In this document: positions 15,801 to 53,356 of the stretch, piece after piece
How positions within the stretch are numbered: position 1 is the first letter of the stretch
How the letters are laid out: every line of letters starts with the position of its first letter
Assembly (NCBI GenBank): GCA_020137815.1
Contig: CM035354.1
Coordinates: 5,890,001 to 5,954,000 of the forward strand
Source: Hormiphora californensis
Lineage: Eukaryota > Animalia > Ctenophora
Direction of reading: 5' to 3'
DNA length: 64,000 nucleotides
The notes under the pieces: model-generated
Databases searched by the model: none
Seen by the model: the letters and a program-made list of their open reading frames with translations, nothing else
Told to the model about the DNA's origin: nothing
Program-made: the position numbers and the translations under genes

Positions 15801-18800
15801 CATAAGCAGACTCATGATACGTCACTAGATACGTCACTAGCATACGTCACATCACATTTACTATATTGCCTCACTCATTCTGAATGCTGGCATAATAGCA
15901 GGATATTATTCAGACAGGGATCACTAGTGAGGCCCCCCCCCCCCTAACTGAATGAATGGAATGTGTGTGTGTGTCTGCCACCTGGATCATACTAAAAAGC
16001 TACAGCTGCTATAACACAACACCCCCCTCATGAGTCATTCATAATGTATACAGCAGCAGCTGCCTTTTTACAGAGCCATACTGAGGACAAATGAGCCAAA
16101 TATACTCTACATTGTTATACATGAGTGGATGAGAGACAGCTTGTGTTATAGACTCGTGTATCACATACGTTATTATTAGAAAGAGTTCTAAGATATAAAT
16201 GCGTTGTAAATAGCTTTGTTTTTCAGCTGTCGGCAGATTGGGAATGTCAAAGTTGGCAGAATAAGATTGTGGAATCTCTCGTTCTTACTGGTAAGGAGCT
16301 ATAATGTGTGTTGGTTGGGTTGGTTGGTATGAGCGGCTGGTGATTTGGTTGTCCTACACTGACTGTACAGTGTACACCGCGCAACCTCGCCGAAGAGGAG
16401 GGTCTCATATGAGACAATGATTTGGGGGCCTTGTTAGAGGCTCTCCTGTTGACCATGAGAGGCTTCCCTGGTTTGGGATTTGCCGCCGCTGGGGGGTTAG
16501 ATTGCGCACGTGAGTGACTTCGGGGGTGAACTTGCTTACCACCGAGAGTTCGATTTGCCCTGGGGCGTCTCGGTGGGTTTGTAGTGAGTTGGTTTGTAAG
16601 CCTTACAATGTAAGGAATGTGTAAATCCCCCTACCATGGTTCCTAGATCCTATTCTAGTATTCAGGACATCGTCCCCAGCACCCTCCCTCTTACCCAATA
16701 CACATTCCCCTCCGGGTATCCTACTCGTGCCCCTTCCCTCTCATCTATTATCCCCCTCCAGGTTTCCTACTCGACCCCCCTATCACCCATCCCCCCTCCG
16801 GGTATCCTACTCGTGCCCCTTCCCTCTCATCTATTATCCCCCTCCAGGTTTCCTACTCGACCCCCCTATCGCCCATGCCCCCTCCGGGTATGCCTACTCG
16901 TGCCCCTTGGCCCTTCCCTCTCATCTATTATCCCTATTCAGGTATCCTCCTGCCGGCAATGTCAGTCCTGGTAGTGACTGTGATCCGAGTTCCTCTTCCT
17001 ACTAAACCCATTCCACTGGAGAGATATCATCTGTTACAGAAACCAGATCCTCGCCTTCATCCTAGTCACCCTGCTAACCTTCCTCCTGGGCAGTATGCCC
17101 CTAATAGGACTGTGTGAGCTGGAAGAAGTGGGAGGGGAATGTGTTATGAAGAAAACTCTCTCCGCACAGTGTGTGGCATGTTTTGCCACAACACTCGGTT
17201 TAGGGTTGGTTGTTCCTAAGGCATCCGTGTTTGTTCTCTACTTCATGATCTATGGGGTGGTACGGAAGGCACGAGAGAGCAAGAAGAGTCTGTCTACACG
17301 GAGTACTCTGTTGAGTGGAACTGGAAGTGGTAGTGGTAGTGAAAGGGTTAGAACAGAGCGAGAATCATTTCCCTGGTCAATCCTGGTAATTCTCTCACTC
17401 AATGTTTTGTCAGCCGTACCCTGGGTTGTACTGCTCGGGTTCCCGGAATATCTCTATGGATCAGAGAAATCAGAAACCTCATATCTATTACTAGATATCC
17501 TGTACTCAACACTGCTGATATCAATAGCAGTTAGCCCCTTGGCGTATCTGTTGACAACAGCTGTGGTGAGACAACAAACTTGGGACTCAATTAAAGGGTG
17601 CTTCTCTTGCTGTAAATCATCGTGAAGAAGAAGGAACCCTCATCATTAGATCGGAGAATTGGTCTGACAGGGATCAGTTGAGGTGGATAGCGTTACAGAC
17701 TAATGACATGCAGTAATGATACTGGATCATGGAGTAATTTCATATTCTCCCCCCGGAGCTATCTATCGAGGATTATATTACTGACACATTGAAACAATAA
17801 GACAATACGCAGTGAACATCTGAAATGACTCATCATTTTGTTGATAAAATGAATGATCAATTCAATTACAAATGTATTTCTTACTTTTATTCCAACCTAT
17901 AATTCACGCAGAATTAAGTTTGACAGCCAACCGGGGTAAATATTTGGTAACGAAGTTACCCCTCCCTTGCCGGCGCGGCGTGCGAAGCACGCCAAACGAA
18001 GGCCGCGAAGCGGCCTGAGTGTGAGGTGTCTTCGATACCAAGGTAAATATATCATTTTAAACTGTTTAGCTTGGCAAGTGTATGGTAATGCGAGAGCCCT
18101 ATCATGCATAATCGAATTTGGATATCCTAATGCCCAGAGAGAGGTCTTGAGCTCTTTTTCAAGGGGGAGGGATAGAGGGAGATAAAGTAAACATTAGATC
18201 ACCCCTGCCACACGTCACAGACCAACCAACCAATAGTAGTTGAACCATAATTAGTGTAGTCACGTGACTCTTCCTATCACGTGATATACCGTAGTAGTAG
18301 TCAGCGGTTACCAGAGACTGCACTAAGCGGCGTCAGTTAACCTGATACTCTGGAGCCGTCGCTGACCGCTGTCCCTTTCTCTCTATTATAGACCCCATAT
18401 CTCTAACTTCCCCTCTCTCTTTCTCCCACTCCCCCTCTCTCTTTCTCCCACTCCCCTCTCTCTTCTCTTACATCCTGATCGTCCCAAGCTAAGTCTCTCG
18501 GAGAGATGAAAGTGAAAGGGTAGACTCACTGATCCTTTCACTTTCACTTTCATTTTGCTCCGATCTATGATTTAGTTTCACTTTCGCCTTGCAGATTTTC
18601 ATTATTTTCACTTTCATTATATCATTGATGACGTAAGACCCAGTCCCACATATTCTGCATAACATGCTTCGGATATTTACTTTCACTTTCATCTTGCCCC
18701 TGCCTGAATATGCCCCGATCGGACTTCCTTCGAAGCTATTTATAACTCGCTTAGATGGCACCGTTTCATACCCAAATATGGTCACAAAAACATGCCCCCT

Positions 18801-25431: not shown

Positions 25432-28400
25432 ATGGAGGTAGAAACAACAGCAGCTCGTATAGATGAGAAATCAGTTAACCCTTCATATTCGTTTATCTCT
25501 GAGGCATTTCGACATGTCACCGCTGGGCCACTTCAATGTTCAGTAAGTCCAATGGACTTTGTCCACACTCAACTTTTCCAATGATTTTATAGATTTAATA
25601 AATACCAATATCCTGTTGATACCGATGTTTATCACCAGGTGTTTTGTGGGGGTAAAACGTGCAAGTATGAGCGTTCAGATTTCTGGGAAACTGACCAAAT
25701 GGCTATTCCTGGGTTGTTTTCTCACTGGGTGACCGATACGATACTGGCGATGGCACGATTAAATTATACTGAAATGAAGAAAAACAACATGATTGATTCT
25801 TTTAAGAAGTAAGAACGAATAAATATTATTTAAATTTGTTGGTAACTACACACATTTTGTTTTGCTAGATGACGTCAAATAATTGTCCAATTTCAAATTT
25901 TCTCTACATGCATCTGAAAGTAAAGAAGCAGCACAGACAACACGCAACAAACATCATGCATCACTCAAACCTTAATGTATCTCCCCCTTCTCTCTCTCTT
26001 TTGTTTACTGCACAATGCACATATAAAACAGATATCAATCCATTCTGTGACATCACCATCCATCCCTTTCTCTACAAAGTGCAATCTCTATATCAGTTCT
26101 ATATCTAACCCCTGACCTCTTTCAGGCAGAATATAAAGACTGTGATAAACCTTCAAGAGAACGGTGAACATGCCAGTTGTGGCATGCCCCTTCACTCCTC
26201 TGGGTTTAGTTACGACCCTCAGGAACTGATGGATAACGATATATTCTACTATAATTTTAACATCCAGGACTACTCAGTCCCTCTCCAGCGGACCCTGCTG
26301 GATATCTGCAAGGTGGTGTCCTTCGCCCAGACTGAGGGTGGAGTGGCGATTCATTGTCACTGCGGGTTTAGGTAGAACTGGTGTTGTGATAGCCTGCTTC
26401 CTTATTTACCATCACAAAATGAAGCCTAAAGATGTAAGTCTACTACTAACTTGGTAACCGTAGCAACTCCGTCACTGTGTAGTTACTGAGTTTACCCGGT
26501 GGTATAAGAGATTGACGTGACTACTTAACTACTTAATTAATGCTCTCCGGCATTTTAAATTTTACCGTATATTATTCTTTCTCGGCAGTCGGCATTGAAA
26601 AAATATTTAGACAGTTAGACAACTCTGTTTAACGTTACGGTTTCTTTCCAGGCGATTCTGCTGGTCCGAAAGAACAGGCCCCGATCAATACAAACCCGGA
26701 ACCAGCTAAAGGCAGTGTTCAAGTTTGCCCTGTACTTGGCTCCCCTCTGGCATCATTTCCCTGTTTCCAGGTTTGTTACAGTTTATAGCTGCCCATTGGG
26801 TCACATCGTTACCATAGCAACTGCACAATTCATCTCTTACTACCGTCACAAGTCCATTATACGGGTGTTTCTGCAGCTGGTACAATCTGTTCATATCTCG
26901 TCTTGACACCATCCGTTCCCACACCGGTTATGTGGGTAACAGAGGTGACAAGACTCACAAAGTACCTCCTCAAATTGGCCCCCCTACTGATTAATATCAT
27001 GGGATTTAGAGCCGCATTGAGGAAGAATAGAGAGTACCCAGAATAATAATGGAAAAGCCGCTTCTCCCTTTTTGCAAAGTGCCACATGGAGTCAACACAC
27101 TGTTCTACAAAGGGGTACACCAGCCCCGTACTGCTCATTATGTAGACGATGGTAACTATGGTGATAGTGATACTGACTGAGCTCCTCAGATTATCCTCCT
27201 GACCCCGGGGTAGGGCCTTCATTCTAGAGATTAGGAAGAGTTGGGTGGCACTGGAGATGACCATGAGAATCACTGGTAGAATCATGGGCAGGAGGAAGAG
27301 AATGTTGAGGAGGAAGCACTTATTGCCACACTGGGTGTTACAGTCACCCTCCATATAGGAGAATATCACCTTGGCCTTGCTGGGCGTGAAGAAATACGTC
27401 ACCAGGGTCAGAGCTGAAATGGGAAGGGGAAGTGAGTTGGAGTGTGAGGGGGATGTTAGATGTAAAGGAGAGAGGGAGAACTATTATATAGAATTTGTTG
27501 TCGTTAGTCGTTGCCATAGCAATAGAAACATTCAACACTACAACTACTCAGTAAAGCAGTAAAGCAGTAAGGGCACGCTGTATATGTAGATCAGAGATGC
27601 TTCTACAGCGGATATTTATTCTTTAATGAAGAATTAGGATTGTACAATGTACACTGAATAATTAGACGACCAACTAAACATACAGTCATTGCTACTAGGC
27701 TGAATTATCATAGCACTGGCAAGTGCCCCGGGCCCAAAAGGGGGGTGTGGGGGCACAGCCCCCACCATAAACGGGGGTGTGGGGGCAGAGCCCCCACCTT
27801 AGAAATACCCTCTAACTCAAAAAACAAAAGAGAGAGCACACGCAACACTTCTACACACAAGCGCGTAAAAACCTGCCAGTGCTACTATATACCATTGCAG
27901 ATTTCGGGGTTTTTGATGCTTTAAAAAAGCATGTTCCAGATGAAGTAGAGAGCTGAAATTTTGTACTCTGGGGGCCCTCATATAGGAGAAGAGGCATGCA
28001 AGTTTTCAGAACGATCGGATTTAAGGTAAAAATTTGCCAGAGGGGTCCCAAAATGCAAAAATGTAAGGAGGGGGAGGGGAGGGGAGGGGAGGGGGAGGAG
28101 GACGCTTTTTTATCTTTGAGTGTTCTCCTAAACCACAAATAGTAGAGACTTGCCGTTTGGAACAGTGGTTCCTTACATCATTGCGCTCGGTAATAGCTGT
28201 GTGAGAACTTCGAAATCGCCATAGTTCATTAATTATTCATTAATTAGTCATTAAATATTCATTTAAACCATGGTCGCGATATGACATGACTCGAAGGTCA
28301 TAGAATCTTGAAACCGGTCTTATTCGACGCGGAATCTTCGATTTATGGGGGGTCTTACTCGGGACAAAAATCTCTATCTCGCACCGTTAAGCCGTTATTT

Positions 28401-35997: not shown

Positions 35998-38243
35998 AAA
36001 GTAGCGACTATTTTATAGTGCCATTTTAAAGCACTTAATAAATAGCAGGTATTAGAAAGCACTTACACACAATACAAAGGCACGCTGGCAATAAATCTTT
36101 AATCTAAAGGTTTATGAGGAGTTTTATTATTCCAAATTGCCTTAATAATAACTCATGACTAGAATGCAATATACAATGCCATTATAACAACGATTCACTA
36201 CTAATATGTTACTATTATACTGCGCTACCATTTCTTATATATGATTTATGTCCAATCAATTGCTAAACAACCAAGGTGCGAGAGAGATCTGAGATGGAGA
36301 GGGAAGGGGATGCAGAGACAAAAAGAGAGTCATAGAGAGTGGGATTGAGTGACTGATTGCCCAGGTTCATAATAATATATGCACATAATATGCTCATTAC
36401 ATAATGTCATTATAATGCATTTCCAATTCCATACCAGCTGAGTTGTGGATCTCACCACCATCACCCATTTTGATTTGTACCCACGTAGAGAGAGAGAGGG
36501 TCAAGCAAGGGAACATATGTTTCACTAAACATTACCTCCGACCTCGTTTCAGATGTTACAAGATCTCGCAACCTAATGGGCAACCTACTAAAACTAAAGT
36601 ACCGAGATATAAAACTTTAATCACGTCCTGAGTCCTGACCAAGCTAGCAGGGATCCCCGCTCAGAGAGTTTGTTGAGACCAAGTGCCCTGATTTATAAAA
36701 CTACCACAATGGGAGTAGTTATCAACAAATATTTTAATCCTTGTTCTGTCAGACTGAATATATGATAGGATGGTCTTGACAAATAAGTCGACTACGATAA
36801 CCATATATTGCTTATTATCGGAGTATTGTTGAAGTTTGTTTATTTGAGAGTTTTATCAGGTTTTTGTGTGTATAAAAAGAGGCTGCTACGAAAGGATTGT
36901 GTGCATTTTATTGGTTCAGTTTTTTAGCTCGGTTTACTCAAACTAATTTGTTTCGATTACTGAAGTCAAACCACGATTTACCGGGCAACTAAATTTCCCA
37001 CAATGTTTTCCCGAAATACCGGGCAAAATCCTTTCCCCGAGCATCCAGGTAAACCGTGGTCCGACAATTCAATGTTTTACCAAAGATTTGTAGCAGTGTG
37101 GACTGTGGCAATCTATAAATTACAAATTACCACCAACCAGGTTGTGGTGGCTTGTTATTTACTATGCTGTAACGCGCGCAGCTAGCAATAAATGAAAGTG
37201 TGAGTTGTCAGCAGTTAGTGTTGCGCGCACACGCCGGCAGACAATTTCATCTGTTTGCGCCAAGTTTTCACCAATCAAATTGCCGCGCCCGCTCCACAGT
37301 TTTGACAGTCAACCAGGCCAAATTCCTGGAATTAACTCACCCATGATACGAATCATATTGGTAATGAAATTCCCCCTCTGCGCTAGCTCACTATATGCAA
37401 TAATAGGGGTGACTTCGTAACCAACGAATCATACAAGACACACGGAGTCAACATGGCGCCGATCGCCCATTCACACTGCGGAGTACTGCAGCAGTACCCG
37501 TCAGACCGGAATGTGATCCTCAGATTCATCAAACCACTGCTGGAGACAAAATCAAAGACGGAAAATAACAGGCACCACACAGGGCGAACATAAACTAAGC
37601 TTTAAAATAGTTTTACAAATTATAAATTAAATTAATACCCGTTAGATATTCAGATGCTCTGATAATAAATTAATTTGACAGTTTTTGTTTGATAGTGTTT
37701 CAAATGCTCAGCTAGCCACAGTAGGTAGCCACAGTATGTAACAGATTAAACTGCTAACTAATGATAGAATAATACAGCCCCAATAAAAGAGATTAAAACA
37801 CTAATAAAATAATAGTTTAATAAAGGTAAAAGAAAGATGCTTTAACCAACATAACTCCCTCTTCAGCCTCTACAGAAGGGGAGAGGGGACGAAACAATTT
37901 GATGTCAGGTACCATATGGACCATGGTAGATATTACATACCTCATAATAAAGGGTCAACTGGTCTTATTATAGTTCATTACATTTTAAAACATTACAACC
38001 TATCTCTAATGCATTATAACATATCCCTAATGCTAATGGATCTCATCTTTAACACAAGTAGTCAGTAACCCTCCAGTCTCCATCACGTCAATTACGTCAT
38101 TACTTACTAACACATTACAAGAGAGAAAGGGTTTGTCAGTTGGGCCTAGCCTAGAGGCGCCATTATAAACTGTCTACTGAGTACTGGAGTACTACTGCCT
38201 ACTGTTAAAGATTAGATACCATATCTAACTACTACTACTACTA

Positions 38244-40655
38244 CTACTGCTGTCCACCCTCTTGTAGTTGTTGGGTGGAAGGAGTGACCCAGACAGTGGT
38301 AAACCAGGCGGGGGTCAAGTTGAGGGGGGACGGAACTGGAGACTGGGGCAGGTAGAATGTCTGCTGTTGCTGGTAGTACATGGGGGACTGAGGGTGGTAG
38401 ATGTTGAATGGTGAGAGGGGTGGCAGGTAGGTGGTGGGGCTACCAAGGTGGCCTACAGCTCCTCCAGGACTGCCGAGAGGTAGGAGTGTTGGGGGTACAA
38501 CAGGATGATTGGGGGTTGTTGGAGTTTGTGGTGGACTGAAACAGGACCCGGGTGCCTCCTGAGAAAGAAAAAAGGGTTACTGATGTAGAAAAAACACGTT
38601 ATCAGCGTCTGTCAGCAGTGACGCATCATTTTAAAATCTCCGCACAAACGACTAGCACAAATAGACCAACATGCAAAGAATTGCTTGCTGCTCAGTTTGT
38701 TTTTATGTTAGCGACTTGAAACAAAGTACATCGTTTAATTTAATTGTCTATGTCTAGGTCAAAACTAGACGAAAAATGAAGAAAGAAGAAACTCAAAAAC
38801 ACGTCTTTTCGACCAAATATTTTGGAATCGCCATAGCTCTGGAACTAGGGCTGATCTCAAAAATCGGCGAGGAACGGAGATTTTAAAATGATGCGACACT
38901 GCAGCTGACAGACCCTGGTTATAACTGGATAAGAGGTCAAAAATATCAGGTTATTCAAATCATGGTCTCACCACAGAGGAGGGAAGTCGGAGTTCTCGGT
39001 AGTTTTTCCGGTAGCTGAAGGACTGGGCATTTGGGTTCTTCCTGGGTGCGTGCCGGTCCATCTTGACGTGAACCTGTAGATACATTGTCAGAGATGAGAG
39101 GGAAGAGAGGGGGATTAATGTTGATAGGCTACAATGGTCTCTAATACCCCAGGCCATGTAGATATTACCACAATTTGAATTACCTGGGGCTGTTTATCCA
39201 GGACAAGCCCATTAATGTACAGAGCATCCGGCCTCGCCCGTGACTTATCTCCCTTGATCTATATGTTATTGGTGGCAGGGACGAATTAGAGTAGACTCTC
39301 GTAGAGGAGCTGATGTGTAGAGACTAAGGGAATCCGTGAATAACATGTAGAATCAGTAGAGATCTAGTAGATTTAGTAGAGATGTAAGAGATCAGGATCA
39401 TACCGTGATTGGACGTATGGATAGAAGCCTGTATTTTTTTATACTTGTAGTCAAGTGTAGATCCACAATACTAATCCAGAAACCCTAACCCTAAATATGT
39501 AAATACCCATATCTAATGCCCGGAGAACCGCGTCATTTAACACATCTCTAACCACCCCTGGGCTACCCGGATGCAAGTAGAGAAGTGCATCTCACAACGG
39601 GGGGAGCCAACATTTGCAAAACTAATAATAGTGAATTTCCTGGGGCTTATTTATCAGCCTCAAAACGGGGGCGATCTGTCTACTGAATTACTCCTGTAGG
39701 AGACAAATATTTGGGTAGGCAGGACGTACTCTATGAGTAGACTCTACTCTAGAGTAGCTCTGATCTAGTAGAGATCTAGTAGAGATCTAGTAGAGATGAA
39801 GTAGAGATGAAGTAGAGATCTAGTAGAGATCAGTAGAGATCTAGTAGAGATCTAGAAGAGATCAGTAGAGATCTAGTATAGATCTAGTAGAGATCTAGTA
39901 GAGATCAGTAGAGATCTAGTAGAGATCTAGTAGAGATCTAGTAGAGATCTAGTAGAGATCTAGTAGAGATCTAGTAGAGATCAGTAGAGATCAGTGATCT
40001 ACCGTTATATTGGAGCTATGAAATAGAACACCGTGTTTTTACCTTGTATGATAGAAGCTGTTCCGCATCCCTGTCTGTTTTAAAGTCGACAAACCCGTAA
40101 CCCTTAGAATAGTTGTAGATATCCCTGATTATCTTAATGTCCTCCGGATAGAACCCGTGTCTATTTAAACACATCTCTAACTCACTCTCGTGGGTCTGCA
40201 GCAGGGGAAATGAGTAAGGAGAAAGTGAATTCTACAACAAGGGGGGAGCCAAACTTTTAACTCAACAAAGCCAAACAGTAAAAGTAGTTCGGAACGATGC
40301 CGTGGTGCTGATCTCCTATTTCTCATGGCGTTCAGCAACGGTCATTATCATGTCCACTTACCGTAGTGTGCAGGTTGCCGACAAACACACGGTTGGAGTA
40401 GCGGATCCCAGACTTGCAGTTACTGTTCCCTGATTCTCTAAATCGAGGGGGCGTGTCCTGAAACGGGTAGGTGTTAGGATGTACTGTATTACTGAATAAT
40501 AAATGAATATTTTTAGACTCCGCAATAATTGAAACCTAACTAAATTATTTAGCAAATAGGGAAACACGGGGATGGCAAACAAATCGCGGAATCAGAAAGT
40601 TAGTTGATAACTTAACTACAATTTATTTATGGCTTACCTGGTTAAAACGATTCAT
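38244..40655 (-). CDS. Single-RRM RNA-binding protein, Boule/DAZ-like, with a P/Q/Y-rich tail
   Basis: Six phase-0 exons: MNRFNQ|DTPP..GIRYSNRVFVGNLHTT|THESELEMCLNRHGFYPEDIKIIRDIYNYSKGYGFVDFKTDRDAEQLLSYK|IKG..QPQ|VHVKMDRHAPRK..|EAPG..YHPQSPMYYQQQQTFY. Confidence 0.75.
38603..38917. mobile_element. MITE in the last intron of the RRM gene
   Basis: TIRs of about 40 bp (cagcgtctgtcagc..cattttaaaatctccg / cggagattttaaaatg..gctgacagaccctg), flanked by a gttat direct repeat. Confidence 0.75.
39760..39995. repeat. (tagtagagatc)n 11-bp minisatellite
   Basis: About 21 copies with 10/11-bp variants. Confidence 0.95.
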
Positions 40656-40926
40656 TTCAATCAAAATCAAATTAAACAAATAACAATTACAGAAGTCCAG
40701 TCCTACAGTGCAGAAACTTTGACGGGAGTTGGAATTTGAATGTGCGACACAGTTCTGCAATAAATTTGGCGCCAAAACACTTGCTCCAGATGCCTCCGCA
40801 AACAATTGGAGGGTGCAACAGTCAATCAAACGCGCAATGATATTTAAATATTCTGCTTTAAAACGCGGACGCAAAACTTTTAATTTCTACGATGCCTTTT
40901 GCGCCGCGCATCGGTGTGGTAGCAAT

Positions 40927-41104
40927 TTTTTCCCTGCCCGGGTGGATGCCGAAGGGCATCCACCCGGATGATCGTTTTAGCACGTGTGCTAAAAAGATCA
41001 TAAAGGGTTTAGAAATCTCGGATTTGAAATAGTAACTCGAGCGTGGTCAAAATCGCGTGTGTCACGGTAGCAGCATAGTAACTGCTCCTTCATAAAATCA
41101 AATA
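40927..41104. mobile_element. Non-autonomous Helentron/DINE-1-like element copy 1, interrupted by a retro-insertion
   Basis: ttttccctg followed by two hairpins (ccgggtggatgcc..ggcatccacccgg; ttttagcacgtgtgctaaaa) and ctgctccttcataaaa, all shared with copy 2 at 42356. Confidence 0.6.
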
Positions 41105-41148
41105 ACTGTTCAAACTTTTTAACACTACTTTAAACAAATTAATTTGAG
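41105..41148 (+). other. Ctenophore-type spliced-leader (SL) exon sequence fused to the head of a retro-insertion
   Basis: actgttcaaactttttaacactactttaaacaaattaatttgag matches my recollection of the ctenophore SL (..CACTACTTTAAACAAATTAATTTGAG). It is followed by tttt rather than a GT donor, so it is not an SL RNA gene. Confidence 0.75.
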
Positions 41149-41194
41149 TTTTAGGATAAAGCTGATGTAACAGCCCACGAGGGGCAGAAAGAAA

Positions 41195-42214
41195 ATGGTA
41201 AATACGGATAATGAAGAAGAAGCAACTCCTCGGATTTACCTGGTAGCTCATCCTGGGAAACCGGCTACTGATATTGATAGGAGGAATGTTAACGACTGCC
41301 AACATGATACAGTATATTGGGTAAAAGAATTGTTGTCGGAGTGTTCAGGGTTTGGATACAGTAACCCAGAGTTAGTGAGATATGGAACTGGTCCTCCACC
41401 AAGGGCTACCTGGGATGATTTGGAGGTTCCGTCTACGAGCAAGCTTAATACGCTGTCGAAGAAAAAGCTGCTAGATTTTACTAAGAGGGCGTGTGGTATT
41501 TTGCTTGAACAGACATTCCCACTTATTCAAAAGTTGCGTGACAAGGGTTGTGAAAGTATGATGGTTAGAGAGTGCGAAGAGGAGCTCAGACAGCAAGGAA
41601 AGGAGCTAATTAAAGCTCAACGAGACCTAGTAGCGGCGCAAGAGGAACTACTCAATATCCAGAGGCAGTTGCTTGAAAAGAGGGAGGTTGAGATTACAGC
41701 TGTGCAGTCAACGGCACAGCAAGAACTGAAGAGCTTCTCCTCCGTTTTGAAGGAAGAATGTGCCTCGGCGCTGGCGCCAAAGAAAATTCAATCAGCGATT
41801 GTGGCAGCCTCTGAGGACCGTGGGTGTAACATCATCATCCATGGCCTGGAAGAGTCAATAAATAGTAGCGTTGAGCTTGAAACTCAAGTAGAGTCTCTTC
41901 TTGTTGAGCTAGGAGAGACTCAGAACGTGAAATCAGTGGAGCGCTTGGGAAGGCAGTCTTTAACTGTCAGACCAGTGAAAGTCGTACTGAAGAGCAGAGA
42001 CGCTCAGATGTCGATCCTGTCGAAAAAATCCCGACTAAAAAGGACCGGCAAGTTCGATAAAGTCTTCATTTCGCCTGGCAGGACTTTGGAGGAACGAAAT
42101 GAGAGAAGACAGCTTGTTGATCGACTGAAGAAAATGGTGCAAAGGTCTCCTGAAAAACATTACTTCATTCGTGGGAAGGAGGTGGTGGAAGCACCAGGGA
42201 CCACTGAGAATTGA
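41195..42214 (+). CDS. LINE ORF1p-like protein (coiled coil plus RRM-like/C-terminal domain), intronless, no ORF2
   Basis: Intact 339-aa ORF with a heptad-rich middle and EDRGCNIIIHGLEE..VERLG..RPVKVVL..KVFISPGRTLEERNERRQL; (tttcaag)n tail at 42302-42335. Confidence 0.75.
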   Translation: MVNTDNEEEATPRIYLVAHPGKPATDIDRRNVNDCQHDTVYWVKELLSECSGFGYSNPELVRYGTGPPPRATWDDLEVPSTSKLNTLSKKKLLDFTKRACGILLEQTFPLIQKLRDKGCESMMVRECEEELRQQGKELIKAQRDLVAAQEELLNIQRQLLEKREVEITAVQSTAQQELKSFSSVLKEECASALAPKKIQSAIVAASEDRGCNIIIHGLEESINSSVELETQVESLLVELGETQNVKSVERLGRQSLTVRPVKVVLKSRDAQMSILSKKSRLKRTGKFDKVFISPGRTLEERNERRQLVDRLKKMVQRSPEKHYFIRGKEVVEAPGTTEN

Positions 42215-42355
42215 AATTAAATTTGTTGAGTTTAGAAGTGATGAGCGAGGAAAGGACAGTTGAGTTGAAAGGTGGTCATTTGTTTGATAGCCTCAATTAT
42301 TTTTCAAGTTTCAAGTTTCAAGTTTCAAGTTTCAAATATGATGTCAGGACGCTTA

Positions 42356-43195
42356 TTTTTTCCCTGACCGGGTGAATGCCGAAGGCATTCACCCGGATGA
42401 TCTTTTTAGCACGCACGTGCTAAAAAGATCATTCAGGGTTTAGAAATCAGCAGATCGTGGAGTTAACTAAAAGTGTCCGTCCCAGGGGCGAAGCAAGGCT
42501 GAGTCCAGTGGGTCCAGGACCCACTTTTTGGACGAGAGAGGAGAAGAAAATGAGAAAACTTGCTAAAAAGTGAAAATATCGGCAAAAACAACCAAAAAAA
42601 AGTGAAAAAATGAACCGATTTTCAATTGAAAAAGCGAATGCGCGCAAGAAAAAATTATGCGGCAGCGCTGGGTCCGGACCCACCTCGCGCGTTACATTTT
42701 CTGCAGCGCTGGACCCAAAATTTTTTTCGTGAATGAACGCCGCGCACCGCCCCTGGTCCGTCCGTCCGTCCACCGTTACACTTAGTAATAAAGTCTGCTC
42801 CTTCATAAAACTTTCAGCTCACACTTTGATGATGCAACAAAGGAAATGATTAACACGCACTGTGGCGCGCAATTACTCACTCGTAACACTTGCTACTTTC
42901 ACCTGAAATCACTTTGGGTACCCATACAGCCGTACCATGACGTTTTAGCAAGTCTTCTAAGCATGAAACTACTATCACTCAATAAGTGACTGGAGTTAAC
43001 TTAAGGGTAAAGTTGAAGCACTTGGTAACCAACTAGGTTCTCCTAAGCAACTGTCTTGGTTATCATAGCAACTGCCTTGGTTACCATAGCAACTGCTTTG
43101 ATTACCATAGCAACCACCCTGGATACCATAGCAACTAACATCGTATCAGCCAAAAATTGCTCTTTGAGTGCAAAATTCATCGGGAAATCCAGTTT
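42356..43195. mobile_element. Non-autonomous Helentron/DINE-1-like element copy 2
   Basis: Same double-hairpin head as 40927, a (gtcc)n microsatellite, ctgctccttcataaaa and a tandem ggttaccatagcaac array at 43058-43135. The right end is approximate. Confidence 0.6.
42483..42755. mobile_element. hAT-type MITE
   Basis: caggggcg..cgcccctg termini with an 8-bp flanking duplication gtccgtcc (42475-42482 / 42756-42763), within a gtcc repeat. Confidence 0.7.
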
Positions 43196-43802
43196 TGAAG
43201 CTTAGTCATCAATTTTACACCCATCTGGGGCAGGGAAACACCGCATTATGAATACATAATGCAATAATTCTTGTTCAAAGCTGTGCGCGGCGCTCACAAC
43301 ACTGTTGCTGAAGGGGTGAGGGTAGAGTAAAACAGCTGTGTAACTGCATACATACAGGACGCATGCATCTCACATTGTGACCAAGCCTTGATATTGTGAT
43401 ACTGATAGTGTGATACTGATCCTGTCGACGGAGGGCAGGGAAACACCGCATTATGAATACATAATGCAATAATTCTTGTTCCGAAGAAATTTTCCGTCGC
43501 GGTTTTCGGTTTTTGAATTTTTTTTGACCACTTTTTAAATTTTTTGAGTCGTGTTTCTTTAAAGGCGCTGCCTTACCACCGAACCGCCGCTGTATCATAT
43601 GCCAGCCGTGTTTATTACGTTACCCGCCTCCCAAGAAGCATACAGCATCACATAAGCTATTGTAAACATTCGTCCAGGGCAGCCTGCGCCCAGCGCCCTG
43701 CAGTGGCAACTGGCAATCCCGGATCCGCTCACCGCTGTGATTGCCATGTCCCCAACTATCCCATACTCCTCTCATTCAGTTTTGTTTCTCATAGTACTCT
43801 CC

Positions 43803-44046
43803 TCGGTGTTTCTTTCCCCCGACCTAACACCGGAGGAACAGCGAGAACGGAAAACTCTCGTTGATACAGTGAAAGGACTGATGCGAGACAATCCGAATGG
43901 ACGATATTGGGTTAGCAGGGGGGTAATTAAATGTGGCTGACTTCTAATCAGTGACATGTGCACTGAAGAGACTTCTAATGGGACTTATTAATGGCTATCC
44001 GTTTTGCCCACAAAAAAGGGGCAGTATATGTAATGTATACATTTTA

Positions 44047-44079
<33 letters not shown>
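43803..44079 (+). mobile_element. 5'-truncated copy of another ORF1-like element ending in (taa)n
   Basis: SVFLSPDLTPEEQRERKTLVDTVKGLMRDNPNGRYWVSRGVI* is homologous to the C-terminus of the 41195 ORF. A UTR of about 110 bp follows, then (taa)n at 44052-44079. Confidence 0.65.
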
Positions 44080-44240
44080 GTACTCTTCGCCGATTGTTAC
44101 TTTCGATTTTTAAATTCCGATCAGCTGATTTACGATTAGTGTTCGCACAAACGGAATTTAAATTATAAAGAAAATTATTTAAATACAATTATTGTATTTT
44201 TATAATCAACTTCACATTATAAAGAATAGTAAAGAGTGTT

Positions 44241-46064
44241 ATGACATACTTGACTTTGGGGAACTTTGGATTATTCCTCTTCTTTCTCTACCTGGCAAAC
44301 TCCTTCAACGTTTTCTATACACTTTACTACCCAAAACTTTGTACCGAGGACTCAATATCATGCCTGTCGCCACAGTTTCCACCCGAAGGGAAATATGATC
44401 TTTATCTGTATGCCACAAAGACTCAAGGAACTGTCAACAGAGACGGTTTAATTTTCAAGAAAGAGGGCGTATCTCTTACCGATTCACTGGAAGAGGACAT
44501 CCAGGTCACTTTAGAAAGGGGCTTTACTAAAAATGTAACAATTTATGGTCAGGTTCTAGTGGTTAAATCAGGTGCTGATCCCCTTTCTCGGTCTACTGTT
44601 TCTGCCAACTACCTAACTACACTGACATCCCTCAAGAGACCGGATTCAAAGAAAGTGAACCTGCTTGATGGTATATCTGTAATAGATAACTCGACTATAA
44701 TCTCGCACTGGCGGCCCCGGCTCATAGTTCATATATTGGATCCTGATATAAAGTTTGACAGCGGTGATTTTCCCATGGAGTTCAGACGGGTCATGGATAG
44801 AAAGAGTCTAACTTATCGGCCTGTCCTCTACGTTGATCAGCTGAGTCTGACTAGACGATACGATGTTCCAATCACATCAGAGAGGGTAAATCTAACAATC
44901 AGTTTCTCACCCATCACCATTGGAAAAATGAGGATATGGTTACAATTTGAGGAGGCTTTAAACAACTTGAGAGCTCTTGGTTTTGGTGAGGACGATGTGG
45001 ACGAGGTTAAGGGAATCTTCTCTGACACGAACATGTACTTCCTGACCCTCACATTCATTGTATCGGTCTTCCATCTTCTGTTCGACTTCCTAGCCTTCAA
45101 AAACGATATCTCCTTCTGGAAAAAGAGGAAGAGCACGGTCGGGTTGAGTACTAGAGGTGTGGTGTGGAGGGCGGTTAGTCAGATAATTGTATTCCTGTAT
45201 CTGTGTGAACACAAGACATCATACATTGTACTGGGACCTGCTGGAGTTGGGATGATTATAGAAATGTGGAAGGTCAGCAAGAGTCTCAAGTTCTCTCTTG
45301 CTGGAGGGAAGGTGACATTTGGGGAGAAGAGTGAGGAAGAGAAGCTGTCGGAAGAGATTGATAAGGAGGCGATGAGATATCTTCAGTGGCTTGTGTACCC
45401 ATTGCTGTTTGGCGGTGCTCTATACTCTCTCTTTTATATGCCTCAACGCAGCTGGTAAGTTAACACATACAGGCATTCCTATTGACTATTACACAGTTGA
45501 GTGCTTTCAGATGCACTGTTTACTTTAACATATTTTGGCAATGGCATATTGAACATTTTATGTCCATCTCTCCACTCTAACCTCTCTTTCTCTTTATCCT
45601 CCCTGACCCCTCTTTCTCTCTCTTTCTCTATCTCTTTCCTCCAGTTCCACTCTGACCCCTTTCTCTCTTTCTTCAGGTATAGCTGGGTTATTAACACCCT
45701 CGTGAACGGGGTTTACTGTTTCGGATTCCTCTTCATGACACCCCAGCTCTTCCTAAACTACCGCCTCAAATCTGTGGCCCATCTCCCCTGGAGAGCGTTC
45801 ATGTACAAGGCATTCAACACGTTTATTGATGATGTCTTCGCATTTATCATCACCATGCCAACCGCTCATCGGATAGCCTGTTTCCGGGACGATATTATAT
45901 TCCTGATATATCTCTACCAGAGATGGCTGTATCCCGTGGACAAGAAACGGGTTAATGAGTTCGGTCAGGTATTTGAGGATGAGGCGATTGAGGGAAGTGC
46001 TATTGAGGATGTGAAGAAGGATGGTAGTTTAGAGATTTCTGAAACTGAAAAGAAGAATCAGTAG
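44241..46064 (+). CDS. CLPTM1L: CLPTM1-like protein (lipid scramblase family)
   Basis: Exons 44241-45454 and 45677-46064. DEVKGIFSDTNMYFL..FDFLAFKNDISFWK..PQLFLNYRLKSVAHLPWRAFMYKAFNTFIDDVFAFIITMPTAHRIACFRDD..YQRWLYPVDKKRVNEFG. Confidence 0.95.
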
Positions 46065-46301: not shown

Positions 46302-47237
46302 ATGGCTGACGATGAGGTTGCCGCCATTACAGAGAATATGGTGAAGCAGTCGCCCAAGATGGTCCGTCCTGCATCCCCAATAGTTGATATCTATGGAGAC
46401 GAGGAGGAGAGTTATGATGTCGGAGGAGCTATAAATGTGAGTAGACGACGTGATTTACTAATTGAGGTGTTACATCTATGAATGTGGTTGGTTCCAGAAT
46501 TACTGATCAATGGTTTCTTGTGACAGACACAGTTTGGTAATAAAAGCTAGTCTTTCCCTTGCCGTTTGCAGTGTTTATGTTCAAAACAGAGAGGGGTGTG
46601 TAAGGGATATCACATTTCCACAATGATACCAGCTTGGCTGATTTCCAAATATTATAACGTGTCTCTCACTTTTCTCTTGGTACCACAAACAACAAACACA
46701 AATTACAAATACTTAAATTTACTTCCGGCAGCAATCCCCACACTTTTTCCAATTCACATCCCCCTTTCTAACCCCACCCAATTCACATGTCCCCTTCGTA
46801 ATACCCAAAAATTTTCCTAATCCCCTGGCCCTATTTTTACAGGTGGACATGCAGTCTCCCCCACACTCACCCAGCAACATGAGACACGATAGTTTCTTCA
46901 ACGAAAACACAGCAATGGCGGAAACTACTGAGTGTAAGTTTGGTGTGGCTTTGACATAACAAACCACAAACTGTATATATTTTGATTTTCCTAATTCCAC
47001 TGATCGTTATCCCGTCTTTTGTTTTCCTCCCACCGATTTGCTGCTTGAAGTCTCCCCATTTGCATTCATAATGATGGTCCTCCTGTGCGGGTCTGTCTGA
47101 GGTTAATCGTTTCGGGGGAGATCACTGCGTAATTTAGAGGCGGGATCGTGCAGCACCAAACTCTCCTGTCGTGTGTGTAGTTAGTGGTGTAATGCTAGCT
47201 TGGTATGGAGATAGAGAGGGGAGAGAGAGATAGAGAG

Positions 47238-47315
<78 letters not shown>

Positions 47316-50300
47316 AGTTGGTCCACCTGCCACCACCTCCTATCGGTTTCCCCCGGGCAACAGGGTCACACGGAGTACCTTTTCCCCATCCCCTTTTCCC
47401 CTTGATCGATTTTCAGGTCCGTGTGGCCGTGGCTAAGCGTGGCTGTGTATCAAAAATACGGAAAAAAATCATAAAATACAAAACACAAAAAGATCTTCTT
47501 GGCTAGGCGGCCCACAGTGTATCATCGCCAACTATTACGTTCCTACCCCGCCTTCCCCGGCTTAGGGTTACCCGTGGAACAGGCACCTTCCAGCCACCTG
47601 TGGACCTCCAATGCCCCTTTATCTACTAACCCACTAACCAATCCTGATACTAATCTGCTAACCCCCTAAACCTCCCATTAATAGGGTACCCCGATCCAGA
47701 GAGAATAGTATACCCCTTACCCCGCGCCTGAGAGGATAGTTTACCCCGCTCCACAGAGGATAGTTGCCCCGATCCAGAGAGAATAGTATACCCCTTACCC
47801 CGCGCCTGAGAGGATAGTTTACCCCGCTCCACAGAGGATAGTTGCCCCGTTCCGGAGAGAATAGTATACCCCTTACCCCGCGCCTGAGAGGATAGTTTAC
47901 CCCGCTCCACAGAGGATAGTTGCCCCGTTCCGGAGAGAATAGTATACCCCTTACCCCGCGCCTGAGAGGATAGTTTACCCCGCTCCACAGAGGATAGTTG
48001 CCCCGTTCCGGAGAGGATAGTATACCCCTTACCCCGCGCCTGAGAGGATAGTTTACCCCGCTCCACAGAGGATAGTTGCCCCGTTCCGGAGAGGATAGTA
48101 CACCCCTTACCCCACACCTGAGAGGATAGTTTACCCCGCTCCACAGAGGATAGTTGCCCCGTTCCGGAGAGGATAGTATACCCCTTACCCCGCGCCTGAG
48201 AGGATAGTTTACCCCGCTCCACAGAGGATAGTTGCCCCGTTCCGGAGAGGATAGTATACCCCTTACCCCACACCTGAGAGGATAGTTTACCCCGCTCCAC
48301 AGAGGATAGTTGCCCCGTTCCGGAGAGGATAGTATACCCCCTACCCCGCGCCTGAGAGGATAGTTTACCCCGCTCCACAGAGGATAGTTGTCCCGTTCCG
48401 GAGAGAATAGTATACCCCTTACCCCGCGCCTGAGAGGATAGTTTACCCCGCTCCACAGAGGATAGTTGCCCCGTTCCGGAGAGGATAGTATACCCCTTAC
48501 CCCGCGCCTGAGAGGATAGTTTACCCCGCTCCACAGAGGATAGTTGCCCGTTCCGGAGAGGATAGTATACCCCTTACCCCACACCTGAGAGGATAGTTTA
48601 CCCCGCTCCACAGAGGATAGTTGCCCCGTTCCGGAGAGGATAGTATACCCCTTACCCCGCACCTGAGAGGATAGTTTACCCCGCTCCACAGAGGATAGTT
48701 GCCCCGTTCCGGAGAGGATAGTTGCCCCGATCCAGAGAGAATAGTATACCCCTTACCCCGCGCCTGAGAGGATAGTTTACCCCGCTCCACAGAGGATAGT
48801 TGCCCCGTTCCGGAGAGGATAGTATACCCCTTACCCCGCACCTGAGAGGATAGTTTACCCCGCTCCACAGAGGATAGTTGCCCCGTTCCTGAGAGGATAG
48901 TTTACCCTGTTCCTGGGAGGATAGTTTACCCCGTTCCAGTTAGATCATAATGCTTCACATATATGTCCCCGTTACAGATCCACCATATAGACATATAGAT
49001 ACACACCCGTACGCTGAAAGTGTCGGTTCGTGCTGAAAAGCTGCAAGGATGGCCGGGTAAACCATCCACTAACGGACCAAATGTGGCGGTGGGATTCCGT
49101 TACCGCTGTGCACCGGTGGCAGTGTTAAGACCCCCAAACCCGGCTCTTCTTCTAACAAACCGATGACTATGTATACACAGTGATTGGTTTGAAACTCACC
49201 CCCAAAACTTACTCATCTTATTCGACATGAGTACTAACACCCGTAAACCAAGGAAGGTCTGGTCTAAGCAAGAGAACCTAGACTTGGTGTACTGCTACTA
49301 CAGCAGCAACCCAGGCACATCCGGATCCTGGAAGAGGCTCGAACGCCTATGGGAAGACAAGGGACACGACCCATTAACAGGTGCCAAACTCTCAAGCCAG
49401 TTCAGATCAATAGAGAAATCTGGACACATGGTAACACCGCAGGAGATGGCTGATCAGCGAATGCTAGCAGGGCTAGCAGCATCTGGCCTAAATATACTCC
49501 CGGAAGTGGATCTCACGGTGAATGATAACACTGCGGGTCCGAGTACCTCGGCAAATGGGGACACCACCGATCCCCCACCACCACCCCCAACTAGAGCGCC
49601 ACGAACGAAATGGACCACAGAAATGAACATTACGCTCGTGTTCATCCACTCGTACTCACAACCTGACAAAAGAGGAGTATGGAACCGAGTGGAGGAAAGG
49701 TGGTCAAAGACAACCTACCCTTCCAAGACTGATGACCAGCTTAGATCCCAACTGAGATCTATAACTCAGTCGGGACTCCTTTCACCACAGAAGCTGATGG
49801 AAATCAGAACAGCGGCCGTAGCCGACCGTGAAGCAACTGAATCGGCACGACAGGCTGTGGTAGAGGACAACCCACCCCCAGAAACCATTGAACCCCCCAC
49901 AAACCCAGTGGAAGAGGAAGAGGAAGAGGAAGGGCCATCACCGAACCCTGAAATCGTGGAGCAGTTCAAGAAACTACTCGAGGAACCAAGCTCCATCAAA
50001 GTCACCGACTTGAGGCATGTCCCCTGGGGGAAGCTACGAGTGGCAATTGACCGACTCAGCCCGGTAATCAAGTCCTTTGAAACTCCAGACCTTACCACAC
50101 TGAACACGCTACTGATGGCCGTAGCCCATGTGGTCCGAGAACAGATGGGCGTTAAGGCACCAAGCGAACCCACCAACAACACCCCCAGAAGGAATAAACA
50201 ACCTATGTGGCTGCGACGACTCGAAGAGAGTGTCGCCAAGCTTCGCTCAGACCTCTCCAGGCTGACCGAAATGAGCAGAGGTGCCACCCACAAGTTCCAA

Positions 50301-53296
50301 ACTATAGATATTATCTATAGAAGATACCCGCTGCTGCCCAAGAAGGGCTATAAACAAGTTATAGAAGAAGTGAAGCAGAGACTGCTAGCGAAGGCCGGAA
50401 AGATTAAGAGATACAAGAAGAAGCAGCAGACATTCGTTGACAACAACCTGTTCCAGAACAACCAACGAAACTTTTACCGGAAACTGGAGAAACGTGGATC
50501 GGACCCCACGCCACTCGATTGTACTCCAGAAGACCAGACCAGGACGCTTAACTTCTGGAAAAATATCTGGGAAAACGAGGCTGGTCATAACACTGAAGCA
50601 GAATGGTTAGACGGAGTCCAGGAGAACTTTGAAACAGTCAGCCAACAGGAAGAGTTTCAGATCACCACGGAAAGAGTTGCAGCTCGGGTGAAAGGAATGA
50701 CCAACTGGTCAACCCCAGGTATAGATGGTCTCCACGCCTTCTGGATTAAACACACGACTTGCCTCCATGGTCGGATAGCTGAGCTACTCAACGAAAGTCT
50801 CATTACGAGTCAAGTCCCGGCATGGATGACTGAAGGCAGGACCTTCCTCCTGATTAAAGACCCCAAGAAGGGAATGTCAAACCCGGGGAACTTTAGACCC
50901 ATAACCTGCCTTCCGAACCTCTGGAAGCTGTATACAGGAATATTATCAGAAGACATCTACCAGCACCTCGATGTAAACGGGCTCTTTCCGGAAGAGCAGA
51001 AGGGGTGCCGCAAAAAGAGTCGAGGATGTAAAGAACAACTAGCAATTGACAAACTTATCCTACGTCATTGCAAACGCTCAAAGTCTTCCTTGTATATGGC
51101 TTTCATAGACTATCAGAAGGCATACGACTCGATCCCCCACTCCTGGATCCTTAAGTCAATGGAGATGTGCGGGATAAACCCTCAGATAATCCGACTATTC
51201 GAGTCATCATTCCAGCAGTGTATTGTCAACATCGTCCAATCTGGGTCAGACTTAGGTAAAATACACATCAAGAGAGGCCTCTTCCAAGGAGACTCCGTCT
51301 CCCCTATTCACTTTATTATAGGCCTGATCCCCCTGTCCATGCTCCTAGCTGCCCAAGGAAGAGGCTACACCATATCTGAACCCAGTAAGCTCCAGATCCA
51401 GATATTAGTATTAACCACCGCCTATACATGGACGATCTTAAGCTGTATGCCAGCTCGAAAGAGGACCTTCAGCAGCTCTTAGCAGTCACTGAGAAGTTTA
51501 GCACTGACATCAACATGTCCTTTGGTCTATCCAAGTGCGGAGCTCTAGACATTGTGGACGGAGTCAGAAGTCGGATGCAGGGAATAAGCCTACCAAGTGG
51601 AGACAGAATACCCGAGGTGGAAGATGGAGGCTATAAGTACCTCGGCATCCTGGAGGTTGACCGTATTCTTCATCAAGAAATGAAAGCTAAGGTCAAAGCC
51701 GAATACACCCGAAGAGTCAAGAAACTACTGTCCTCGAGCCTGCAAGGCAAGAACCTCATCACAGCAATCAACACATGGGCAATACCTGTGATCCGTTACG
51801 GTGCCGGAATACTGGACTGGTCCACTTCCGAAGCCAGTGGACTAGACATGATGACTAGGAAGATCCTGAGAAGAGGAGTCATCAAGAGCAACAGTGACAT
51901 TGACCGGCTGTATGTTTGCAGGAAACTGGGAGGAAGGGGTCTCCAACGGATTGAAGATGTCATTGTGAAGGAAGAGACAGGACTAGTGACATTCTTCACC
52001 AATTCCACGGACCCCAAGATCCGTGCCCTCCACACGGCGATGCAGTCTGAAGATATGCTAACTGGACCTCCAGAAGACGCAGAAGCCCTGAAGGAAAGAC
52101 TACAGACGGAACTTATAGAGAAATGGAAACACAAAGTCTTACATGGAAGATTCCTGAAGCAACTTGAAGAAGGGGGATGCGACCCTGACGCGACCTGGGC
52201 CTGGCTCAACAAAGAGAGCCTCAGCAGATACACCGAAGCCGATGTCTTTGCTGCCCAGGATCAAGCCATTCGCACGAACTGGTTGAGAGCTGCCATACAG
52301 AAAGAGAATGAAGTGACTGAGAAGTGCCGGATCTGTAACCAACACAACGAGTCAGTGGAACACATCCTAAACGGATGCACGAAACTTGCCAACGGAGACT
52401 ATAAACTCCGACACGATCGAGTAGCTGCTGCCCTGCACTGGGGAATATGCAAGGACCACGGATTTCCTACCGAATCAAAGTGGTGGAGCCACTATGCAGA
52501 GAAAGTGCTCGAGAATGAGAACTGCAAGATCCTCTGGGATTTCCACATTCAGACGGATAACCCCATCGAGGCATGTAAACCTGACGTGGTCCTTCTAGAC
52601 AAACTAAAGAAGGAAGCGCTTCTGATCGATGTCGCTGTACCAAAGGACAGGTCAGTCTCGGACAGGGAGATGGAGAAGATCGAGAAGTACCAAGAACTAC
52701 GGAGGGAGCTCACACGAATTTGGGATCTTAAAAAGGCCACGGTCATCCCTATCGTGATCGGAGCTCTTGGCGGAGTCAGCCCCCGACTGGAGAAGTACCT
52801 GACTGCTATAACCCGCCAAATTTACCCTTCACAGCTTCAAAAGTCAGTCCTCTTTAACTCGATGAACACGCTCCGGAAAGTTCTCGACATGTAATATTAC
52901 CTCCCGAGCTGTCCCCCCTGTTATTGTCAATTATTTTTTTACCCTTTTTACCCGTTCCTGCTTGCCCCTAGATTTCCCTAGATTCAGACAGTTTGCTTCT
53001 TCAGTTCCTGATAAGTTGCCTCTTCTTAGGCTCCGTTCCAGAAGGTTGGGCTTCTTTCCAGATAGCTTAGGAGGTCTTATGCTCCGCCACCATGAGCTTT
53101 AACTCCCCTTTAAATGTTTTCCCTTACTTTATCCCATATGTACATTGTTCAACTTTCCCCTATGTACATTGTTTTACCTACCTTTACTCCGCAGGCCCTC
53201 CGGGCCCTCAGATCCAACAGGATCCGGGCTCGGGGGATTTAACCCTGCTCACGCATGGGACCTTACGGCCCCATGCGGGAGTGGTGCGTGTAGTGG

Positions 53297-53356
<60 letters not shown>

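Follow-up and report, generated by a model that had tools for sequence, protein, structure and literature searches.

Why does a copy of the host's spliced leader stand in genomic DNA at the head of a gene that is bracketed by a target-site duplication and has no reverse transcriptase (RT) beside it? This question is raised by a 64,000-nt stretch of the genome of the ctenophore Hormiphora californensis (assembly GCA_020137815.1, contig CM035354.1, positions 5,890,001 to 5,954,000 of the forward strand; hereafter the window, in whose positions all coordinates are given). Between two 7-nt direct repeats, the window carries an element unit of 1,227 nt (41105-42331) that consists of a leader-like 44-mer, a single open reading frame (ORF) between two untranslated regions (UTRs), and a microsatellite tail. 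An earlier interpretation, made from the sequence alone (the sequence-only reading), had held that a trans-spliced RNA was reverse-transcribed to its very 5′ end and integrated, and that the element represents either a HAL1-like family or one half of a bipartite long interspersed nuclear element (LINE). Our analysis indicates that the element is probably a non-autonomous, HAL1-like, ORF1-only LINE derivative; a LINE enzyme provided in trans would have reverse-transcribed its trans-spliced RNA nearly as far as the cap.

A host-type spliced leader heads the element

We compared the 44-mer (41105-41148, + strand) with the leader printed in the H. californensis genome paper (PMC8527503), in which a 44-nt trans-spliced leader is reported for 56% of the Iso-Seq reads and for 718 places in the genome. 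The two sequences were identical at 39 of 44 positions, with mismatches at positions 1 to 4 (ACTG, 41105-41108) and 16, and from position 5 onward, i.e., over the leader core (41109-41148), they agreed at 39 of 40. The exact 44-mer was found once in the window, with 0 occurrences expected. Judged by its sequence, the 44-mer is thus a real spliced leader of the host type, in agreement with the sequence-only reading. Since it is followed by a T (TTTTAG, 41149-41154) and not by a GT donor, the locus is not a leader-RNA gene, and the leader sits inside the target-site duplication.

A copepod leader was rejected as the source of the 44-mer, as its sequence (PMC4664967) gave no match, and so was the notion that the leader and the next 46 nt form a whole unspliced leader RNA, there being no GT donor and, by eye, no clear Sm site. 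In the window, sequences resembling the leader 3′ end with at most 2 mismatches numbered 3, against 0.13 expected. One 16-mer at 36937-36952 (- strand; AACAAATTAGTTTGAG), which has 1 mismatch to the leader 3′ end and is followed by neither GT nor an ORF, may be an old truncated leader relict or a chance match; it was not accepted as a second leader-headed copy, because only 16-18 nt are alike and no ORF comes after it. The viral_contigs scans returned 0 matches for the leader core and 0 for the 3′ module described below.

Inspection of the sequence confirmed all the described parts of the element at their coordinates. Two copies of TCAAATA (41098-41104 and 42332-42338, + strand) form the direct repeat that brackets it. 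A direct repeat of at least 7 nt, with ±5 nt of slack at both ends, was obtained in 179 of 20,000 random placements in the window, and the 7-nt duplication exceeds chance; TCAA, which makes up 4 of the 7 duplicated nt, overlaps the last tail unit, so that only ATA lies unambiguously outside the tail. On the + strand, the leader is followed by a 46-nt 5′UTR (41149-41194), which starts with TTTTAG and contains a small GCCC/GGGC hairpin, by an intact ORF of 339 aa that runs from ATG to stop in the standard code (41195-42214), by an 87-nt 3′UTR (42215-42301), the last 56 nt of which (42246-42301) constitute a conserved module, and by the tail, (TTTCAAG)4.9 (42302-42335; period 7, 100% matches), which has its last 4 nt in common with the duplication. 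As had been proposed, this tail is a microsatellite in the style of LINEs, and no RT ORF exists between the duplications, where the single ORF is succeeded by the 87-nt UTR leading directly into the tail. Neither the head (leader plus 5′UTR; z 0.36) nor the 3′UTR (z -0.84; no significant stem-loop) was predicted to fold better than shuffled RNA, and Rfam yielded no match over the whole window at gathering thresholds and two chance matches only over 40900-42500 at E <= 1.

The sequence-only reading had also placed the insertion within a Helentron-like repeat, and the element lies between two units of a very abundant two-hairpin repeat. The upstream unit (40928-41097, + strand), recognized by sequence comparison and contig depth, ends in GCTCCTTCATAAAA, and the downstream unit (42358-42810, + strand) matches 40925-41017 with 89.5% identity in a 95-nt stretch. 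Contigs from four DNA runs were compared over 40600-42900, with contig depths summed, which does not give a copy number; for this repeat the summed depth in run X2 was 190,000-400,000 compared with about 136 in the unique flank, and it was also put at 1,500 to 4,700 times the unique flank in that run. The repeat has two perfect hairpins and the unit end GCTCCTTCATAAA, and further ends are located at 13644, 13950 and 58017.

The element is multi-copy and both ends of its RNA are conserved

Over the ORF, the summed depth ranged from 2,400 to 52,000 in X2 and from 7,300 to 135,000 in X3, while that of the unique flank was 133-180 and 83.5, respectively, and a metagenome scan recovered four related loci (L001-L004). 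With a depth far above that of the unique flank and copies elsewhere, the element is multi-copy, as had been claimed, and not a single-copy host gene.

The closest comparison was provided by L002, which has a 1-nt frameshift in its ORF, shows 71% protein identity to the window ORF, has 52 nt of unrelated sequence upstream, matches the published leader at 42 of 42 nt over leader positions 3-44, and carries a TTTCAAG tail that extends to the last base of its contig. Identity of L002 to the window copy was 20/46 in the 5′ flank, 39/40 in the leader core, 46/46 in the 5′UTR, 24/31 in the first 31 nt of the 3′UTR and 56/56 in its last 56 nt, and over the ORF it was 70.5% for aa 1-120 and 86% for aa 121-339. 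The heads begin at different leader positions (5 in the window copy and 3 in L002), as is expected of independent reverse-transcription stops. The 5′ flanks of the two copies are unrelated, and the 3′ flank in the window is the hairpin repeat, not a leader intron.

The ORFs of the two copies differ with a synonymous divergence (dS) of 0.54, and the ratio of nonsynonymous to synonymous divergence (dN/dS) is 0.28 overall, 0.64 in the N-terminal part and 0.13 over aa 121-339, which hold the helix, the RNA recognition motif (RRM) and the C-terminal part described below; against L001, dN/dS is 0.19. The ORF is under purifying selection. Both UTR ends are conserved far above the synonymous sites of the ORF, and this tighter hold on the RNA ends than on silent ORF sites fits either cis-acting roles or module exchange between subfamilies. 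The identical 5′UTR also bears on the suggestion that TTTTAG (41149-41154) serves as a fresh trans-splice acceptor, which was not borne out: the progeny of such splicing would be devoid of TTTTAG, yet the window copy and L002 both retain it (46/46). Shortly before the ATG, the 5′UTRs of L001 (1-28) and of the window copy (41172-41184) each contain a small GCCC-loop-GGGC hairpin with differing loops, a likeness between two sequences only that carries no statistical support.

The window copy has a G at 42078, which changes a nearly invariant Asp to Gly and is private to this copy, since every other contig has an A at this position (19 in X2, 9 in X3, 4 in X8 and 1 in X7). All 10 full-length variants retrieved encode Asp, and all 10 are distinct and intact. 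Thus, the window copy is a slightly decayed daughter and not a master.

The ORF product resembles LINE-1 ORF1p in fold and architecture

By sequence, neither the 339-aa protein nor 25 family members nor 40 more distant relatives matched a Pfam family, with coiled-coil noise only; a profile search of PDB sequences likewise gave nothing beyond coiled-coil noise, and the matches in the ESM Atlas, at 0.82, were all unnamed ctenophore clusters. AlphaFold models were obtained from two alignments, one of 14 and one of 25 sequences (mean predicted local distance difference test score [pLDDT] of 71.8 and 74.0, respectively). In both predictions, a variable helical N-terminal part precedes a single helix some 70 residues long (119/122-192), after which come an RRM with four strands (208-296) and, at the C terminus, a helix plus hairpin.

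When these models were compared with the PDB using Foldseek, human LINE-1 ORF1p took the top 9 places for model 1 and the top 10 for model 2, with best E values of 1.7e-4 and 6.4e-5, respectively. VIA-align superposed the predicted RRM on that of ORF1p with Z 11.1 (rmsd, i.e., root mean square deviation, 2.4 over 88 aa), the best generic RRM reaching Z 9.1, and over the helix, RRM and C-terminal part it gave Z 10.2-10.6 to the chains of the ORF1p trimer. A scan of 48,161 chains that did not depend on Foldseek again placed ORF1p at ranks 1-3 (Z 10.4, 9.3 and 9.0), followed by a chain with 8.7. These data support, by a modest margin, a LINE-1 ORF1p-like fold and architecture for the modeled protein; the proposal of a LINE-ORF1-like ORF therefore stands at this level and is not supported at the sequence level, where there is no Pfam match.

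An ORF1-only design recurs among the relatives

A 5′-truncated relative was identified by tblastn and tandem-repeat analysis 1.5 kb downstream of the element (43791-44086 including its duplications, element 43801-44076, + strand). The C terminus of its ORF at 43806-43922 matches aa 290-327 with 43.6% identity (E 7e-5, tblastn in the window), and the copy starts abruptly inside the ORF, proceeds through the stop and a UTR of about 130 nt into (TAA)9.7 at 44051-44079, and is bracketed by a 10-nt duplication of its own, ATAGTACTCT (43791-43800 and 44077-44086). In L001, which has 53% identity, the contig stops in (TGA)7. Taken together with TTTCAAG, these TGA and TAA tails reveal a design, ORF1 stop, short UTR and microsatellite tail, that recurs with three tails. 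In the more distant family member L003, positions 1316-1343 end in 2.5 copies of AATTCTGTTAT, which resembles the ATTCTRT repeats at CR1 3′ ends; this tail hints that different subfamilies may use different LINE partners. The family thus bears the hallmarks of target-primed reverse transcription: 7-nt and 10-nt duplications, a 5′-truncated relative, high depth, and a copy (L002) in another flank.

No relative was seen to continue into an RT, in line with the sequence-only reading: the four metagenome loci all stand alone, and a search for longer homologues gave 0 relatives among proteins of 595-2,000 aa, which is weak evidence. All 34 profile-search relatives with a recorded contig were on contigs of at most 2,042 nt. 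The profile search yielded 9,554 representatives (clusters at 50% identity) at E <= 1e-3, a list whose weak end may be inflated by the coiled coil, 1,708 at <= 1e-10, and 207 at <= 1e-30, and the best 150 of the 9,554 are all 118-352 aa long. Ten sampled clusters came mostly from environmental data, on contigs mostly of 1.0-1.9 kb with a few of up to 497 kb. Short contigs can arise from assembly breaks in repeats, and the evidence for ORF1-only organization is accordingly good and not proof.

This ORF1p-like family is very large and unannotated, and none of 40 sampled members had a Pfam family above the cut-off. One gene model labelled Pleurobrachia bachei belongs to a protein cluster with 95% identity to the ORF, in keeping with a host that is a pleurobrachiid-type ctenophore. 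Contigs in X2, X7 and X8 share only the last ~50 nt and the tail with the window copy, from which they diverge upstream of 42284; this hints that the same 3′ module may be present on other elements.

Other features of the window

An R2-like LINE occupies 47208-53353 (+ strand) and has a single ORF split by one frameshift (49227-51482 and 51389-52894). It matches RVT_1 at 1.7e-17, its best PDB sequence matches are R2 proteins (1.8e-21), and its C terminus contains a CCHC motif as well as a KPD...IDV motif like that of a restriction-type endonuclease. No leader head was seen on this LINE. It is flanked by (GA)n at 47208-47309 and at 53300-53353, so that a GA microsatellite was its likely target. 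A 78-bp tandem array (47689-48939; 13.3 copies, 97% identity) separates the R2-like ORF from the (GA)n upstream of it and may be the 5′UTR of the R2-like element.

A CLPTM1 homologue (44241-45458, + strand), 1.9 kb downstream of the leader-headed element on the same strand, consists of one uninterrupted ORF that matches nearly the whole Pfam profile (E 1e-100). An 11-bp tandem array, (GATCTAGTAGA)21, is present at 39762-39992, and ORFs at 16984-17625 (+ strand) and 26857-27480 (- strand) gave weak matches to rhodopsin-type G-protein-coupled receptors (7tm_1), below the Pfam cut-off.

Origin and propagation of the element

The sequence-only reading thus proved partly right, and none of the three findings that it had named as fatal to it was encountered. 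The leader head with no GT donor after it, the position of the leader inside the duplication, the ORF1p-like fold, the LINE-style tail, the multiple copies and the lack of any continuation into an RT all speak for it, while the use of TTTTAG as an acceptor and the copying of the RNA to its very 5′ end do not follow from the data, the latter claim being slightly overstated in that the first 4 nt differ from the leader. We favor as the probable origin a non-autonomous, HAL1-like element moved by a LINE. Precedents exist in HAL1, an ORF1-only L1 derivative (PMC5753468), and in Hydra, where a spliced leader is present on about 30% of the Iso-Seq reads from transposons (PMC12220107).

The cycle of such an element would run as follows. 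The element would have no promoter of its own and would be transcribed by read-through, after which the leader would be added to its RNA by trans-splicing at the AG just upstream of TTTTAGGATAAAG. This acceptor could be the AG that ends the DNA-encoded leader itself, in which case the same head would be rebuilt in each cycle; the same junction would then be used every time, and no stacked relict leaders would accumulate, unlike in dinoflagellates. The last 56 nt of the 3′UTR together with the repeat would form the recognition site of a partner RT, a LINE enzyme that acts in trans and primes on the repeat tail. TCAA, common to target and tail, would reflect annealing of primer and tail in target-primed reverse transcription, and the enzyme would stop only a few nucleotides short of the cap.

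Several observations weigh against this reading. At the 5′ end, the first four nt of the head (ACTG) differ from the leader, and the equal conservation of leader, 5′UTR and 3′ module is as compatible with a fixed head passed on vertically as with fresh trans-splicing in each cycle. Four RNA runs contain 6-19% of the sampled words, which is not evidence of expression. No empty-site joint (41097 to 42339) was present among the 15 listed of 52 joints in contigs of the DNA runs; the unique-flank contigs of X2 and X3 end at 40930, where the abundant repeat starts, and consequently do not show presence or absence of the insertion in other individuals. An RT partner with a TTTCAAG tail did not turn up, no genome-wide search for one having been made, and the only RT element in the window is the R2-like one with its (GA)n tail. 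As for the protein, none of 25 family members and none of 40 further relatives showed a sequence link to Transposase_22 (Pfam), and ORF1p outscores generic RRMs by only about 2 Z units.

Two other accounts of the leader dispense with trans-splicing of the present RNA, and both appear unlikely to us. According to one, the promoter of a spliced-leader RNA gene drives a master copy located directly after the leader exon of that gene; the RNA of the master would then begin with leader position 1, no trans-splicing would be involved, and the window copy would be a daughter of this RNA. Retroelements such as SLACS, CRE and NeSL do insert into leader genes, with SLACS transcripts starting at leader gene +1, and the leader-5′UTR junction is invariant between two subfamilies that differ with a dS of 0.54; yet a fixed trans-splice acceptor explains this invariant junction equally well. 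No master copy was seen, promoters of the small nuclear RNA type are poor at making 1.2-kb RNAs, and the unrelated 5′ flanks, with the window leader inside the duplication, identify both copies as daughters and not as leader-gene inserts. The other account holds that the leader is a fossil, captured once by retroposition of a trans-spliced ancestor and now copied vertically as part of the 5′UTR, while transcription starts from a promoter inside or upstream of the element and trans-splicing no longer takes place. The leader of Ascaris is a promoter element of its own gene, and leader (39/40), 5′UTR (46/46) and 3′ module (56/56) are conserved to the same degree here, for which no separate refreshing of the leader is needed. 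A fossil would not account so readily for copies that begin at different leader positions (5 and 3) or for the 42/42 identity of L002 to the host leader in spite of a dS of 0.54, and more than half of the mRNAs of H. californensis are trans-spliced (PMC8527503).

The remaining rivals concern the kind of element rather than the leader. In a bipartite LINE, ORF1 and ORF2 would reside on separate RNAs with a common 3′ module and tail, and neither would be a parasite of a complete LINE. Several data are in keeping with this arrangement, including the recurrence of the ORF1-only design with three tails (TTTCAAG, TGA and TAA), the very large family in which every listed member (best 150 of 9,554) stands alone, the contigs in X2, X7 and X8 that share only the last ~50 nt and the tail, and the presence of a single-ORF RT element in the same window. 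We nevertheless rate it quite improbable, as no RT-bearing RNA with a TTTCAAG tail was seen, the tail-sharing contigs may be other ORF1 subfamilies, and the RT element of the window is R2-like with a different tail; R2-like elements are not known to have an ORF1. Least credible of all is that a domesticated host gene gave rise to the copies as processed pseudogenes of its trans-spliced mRNA. The ORF is intact and under purifying selection, and gene models exist in the Pleurobrachia bachei protein set, but the tail is a microsatellite instead of poly(A), conservation is stronger in the 3′ module than in the coding sequence, the depth exceeds that of the unique flank by a factor of tens to hundreds, many distinct intact variants exist (10/10 retrieved), and a 5′-truncated relative has a different tail. 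The tails, the copy number and the truncated relative thus make host-gene retrocopies highly implausible.

If the favored reading, a LINE-mobilized HAL1-like element, is carried further, one arrives at a broader and speculative proposal, which we advance tentatively. The family would be promoterless and live off host trans-splicing: read-through transcripts would be cut and capped at the AG of the element's own DNA-encoded leader, which would rebuild an identical head without a pile-up of relicts. It would be part of a group of stand-alone ORF1p-like genes that is very large and unannotated in marine eukaryotes, and a sizeable share of the 718 "leader loci" reported in PMC8527503 would be such heads and not leader-RNA genes.

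Leader-headed copies of this type can inflate counts of leader genes, and they can mislead read mappers that anchor leaders to the nearest genomic leader, as described for the ctenophore genome in PMC8527503. ORF1-only "half" LINEs and spliced-leader tags fossilized in DNA, so far known apart, are joined in one element here, and a literature search of limited coverage turned up no animal family of LINE-derived elements with a leader at the head. The element offers a natural system for asking why non-autonomous elements retain ORF1p. Were it trans-spliced in every cycle, it would mean that a retroelement can dispense with a promoter in trans-splicing organisms.

Comparison with known systems

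The best structural match of the encoded protein is human LINE-1 ORF1p (PDB 2ykp, 2yko, 2ykq, 2w7a and 2ldy), with which the predicted protein shares the order of a long coiled-coil helix, an RRM and a short C-terminal domain. It differs from human ORF1p in that the sequence identity is 12-17%, a Pfam match is missing, and the C-terminal domain is shorter.

At the level of the whole element, the nearest counterpart is mammalian HAL1, which is non-autonomous, has an ORF1p-type gene only and is multi-copy (PMC5753468); like it, the ctenophore element would be moved by a LINE enzyme in trans. Unlike HAL1, the ctenophore element has a microsatellite tail instead of poly(A), no Transposase_22 match and a spliced-leader head. 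With a (TTTCAAG)4.9 tail that is not poly(A), and being not detectably L1, the element works like HAL1 without being a HAL1 in the strict sense. In its 3′ end it is similar to LINEs and short interspersed nuclear elements (SINEs) that share tails of the stringent type, for which the clades are CR1/L2-like, as a short tandem-repeat tail follows a highly conserved 3′ module (56/56, versus a dS of 0.54 in the ORF); it departs from them in that its 3′UTR has no significant stem-loop.

The leader head invites comparison with two further systems. SLACS/CZAR/CRE and NeSL-1 are likewise retroelements physically joined to spliced-leader sequence, yet these LINEs occupy a fixed site inside leader-RNA genes and have their own RT with a restriction-like endonuclease, whereas the ctenophore leader travels with the element, inside the duplication and between unrelated flanks, and is not tied to a fixed site. 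In the spliced-leader-relict retrogenes ("recycled cDNAs") of dinoflagellates (PMC6050394, PMC5585692 and PMC12014239), a DNA-encoded 5′ leader marks the copy of a mature trans-spliced RNA, and the same signature, a host leader in DNA at the 5′ end with no splice donor after it, is displayed by the window copy (39/40) and L002 (42/42). The dinoflagellate retrogenes are host genes that were copied once or a few times and often bear stacked, truncated relict leaders; by contrast, the H. californensis element belongs to a transposable-element family and combines a single, nearly complete leader with a LINE-type repeat tail.

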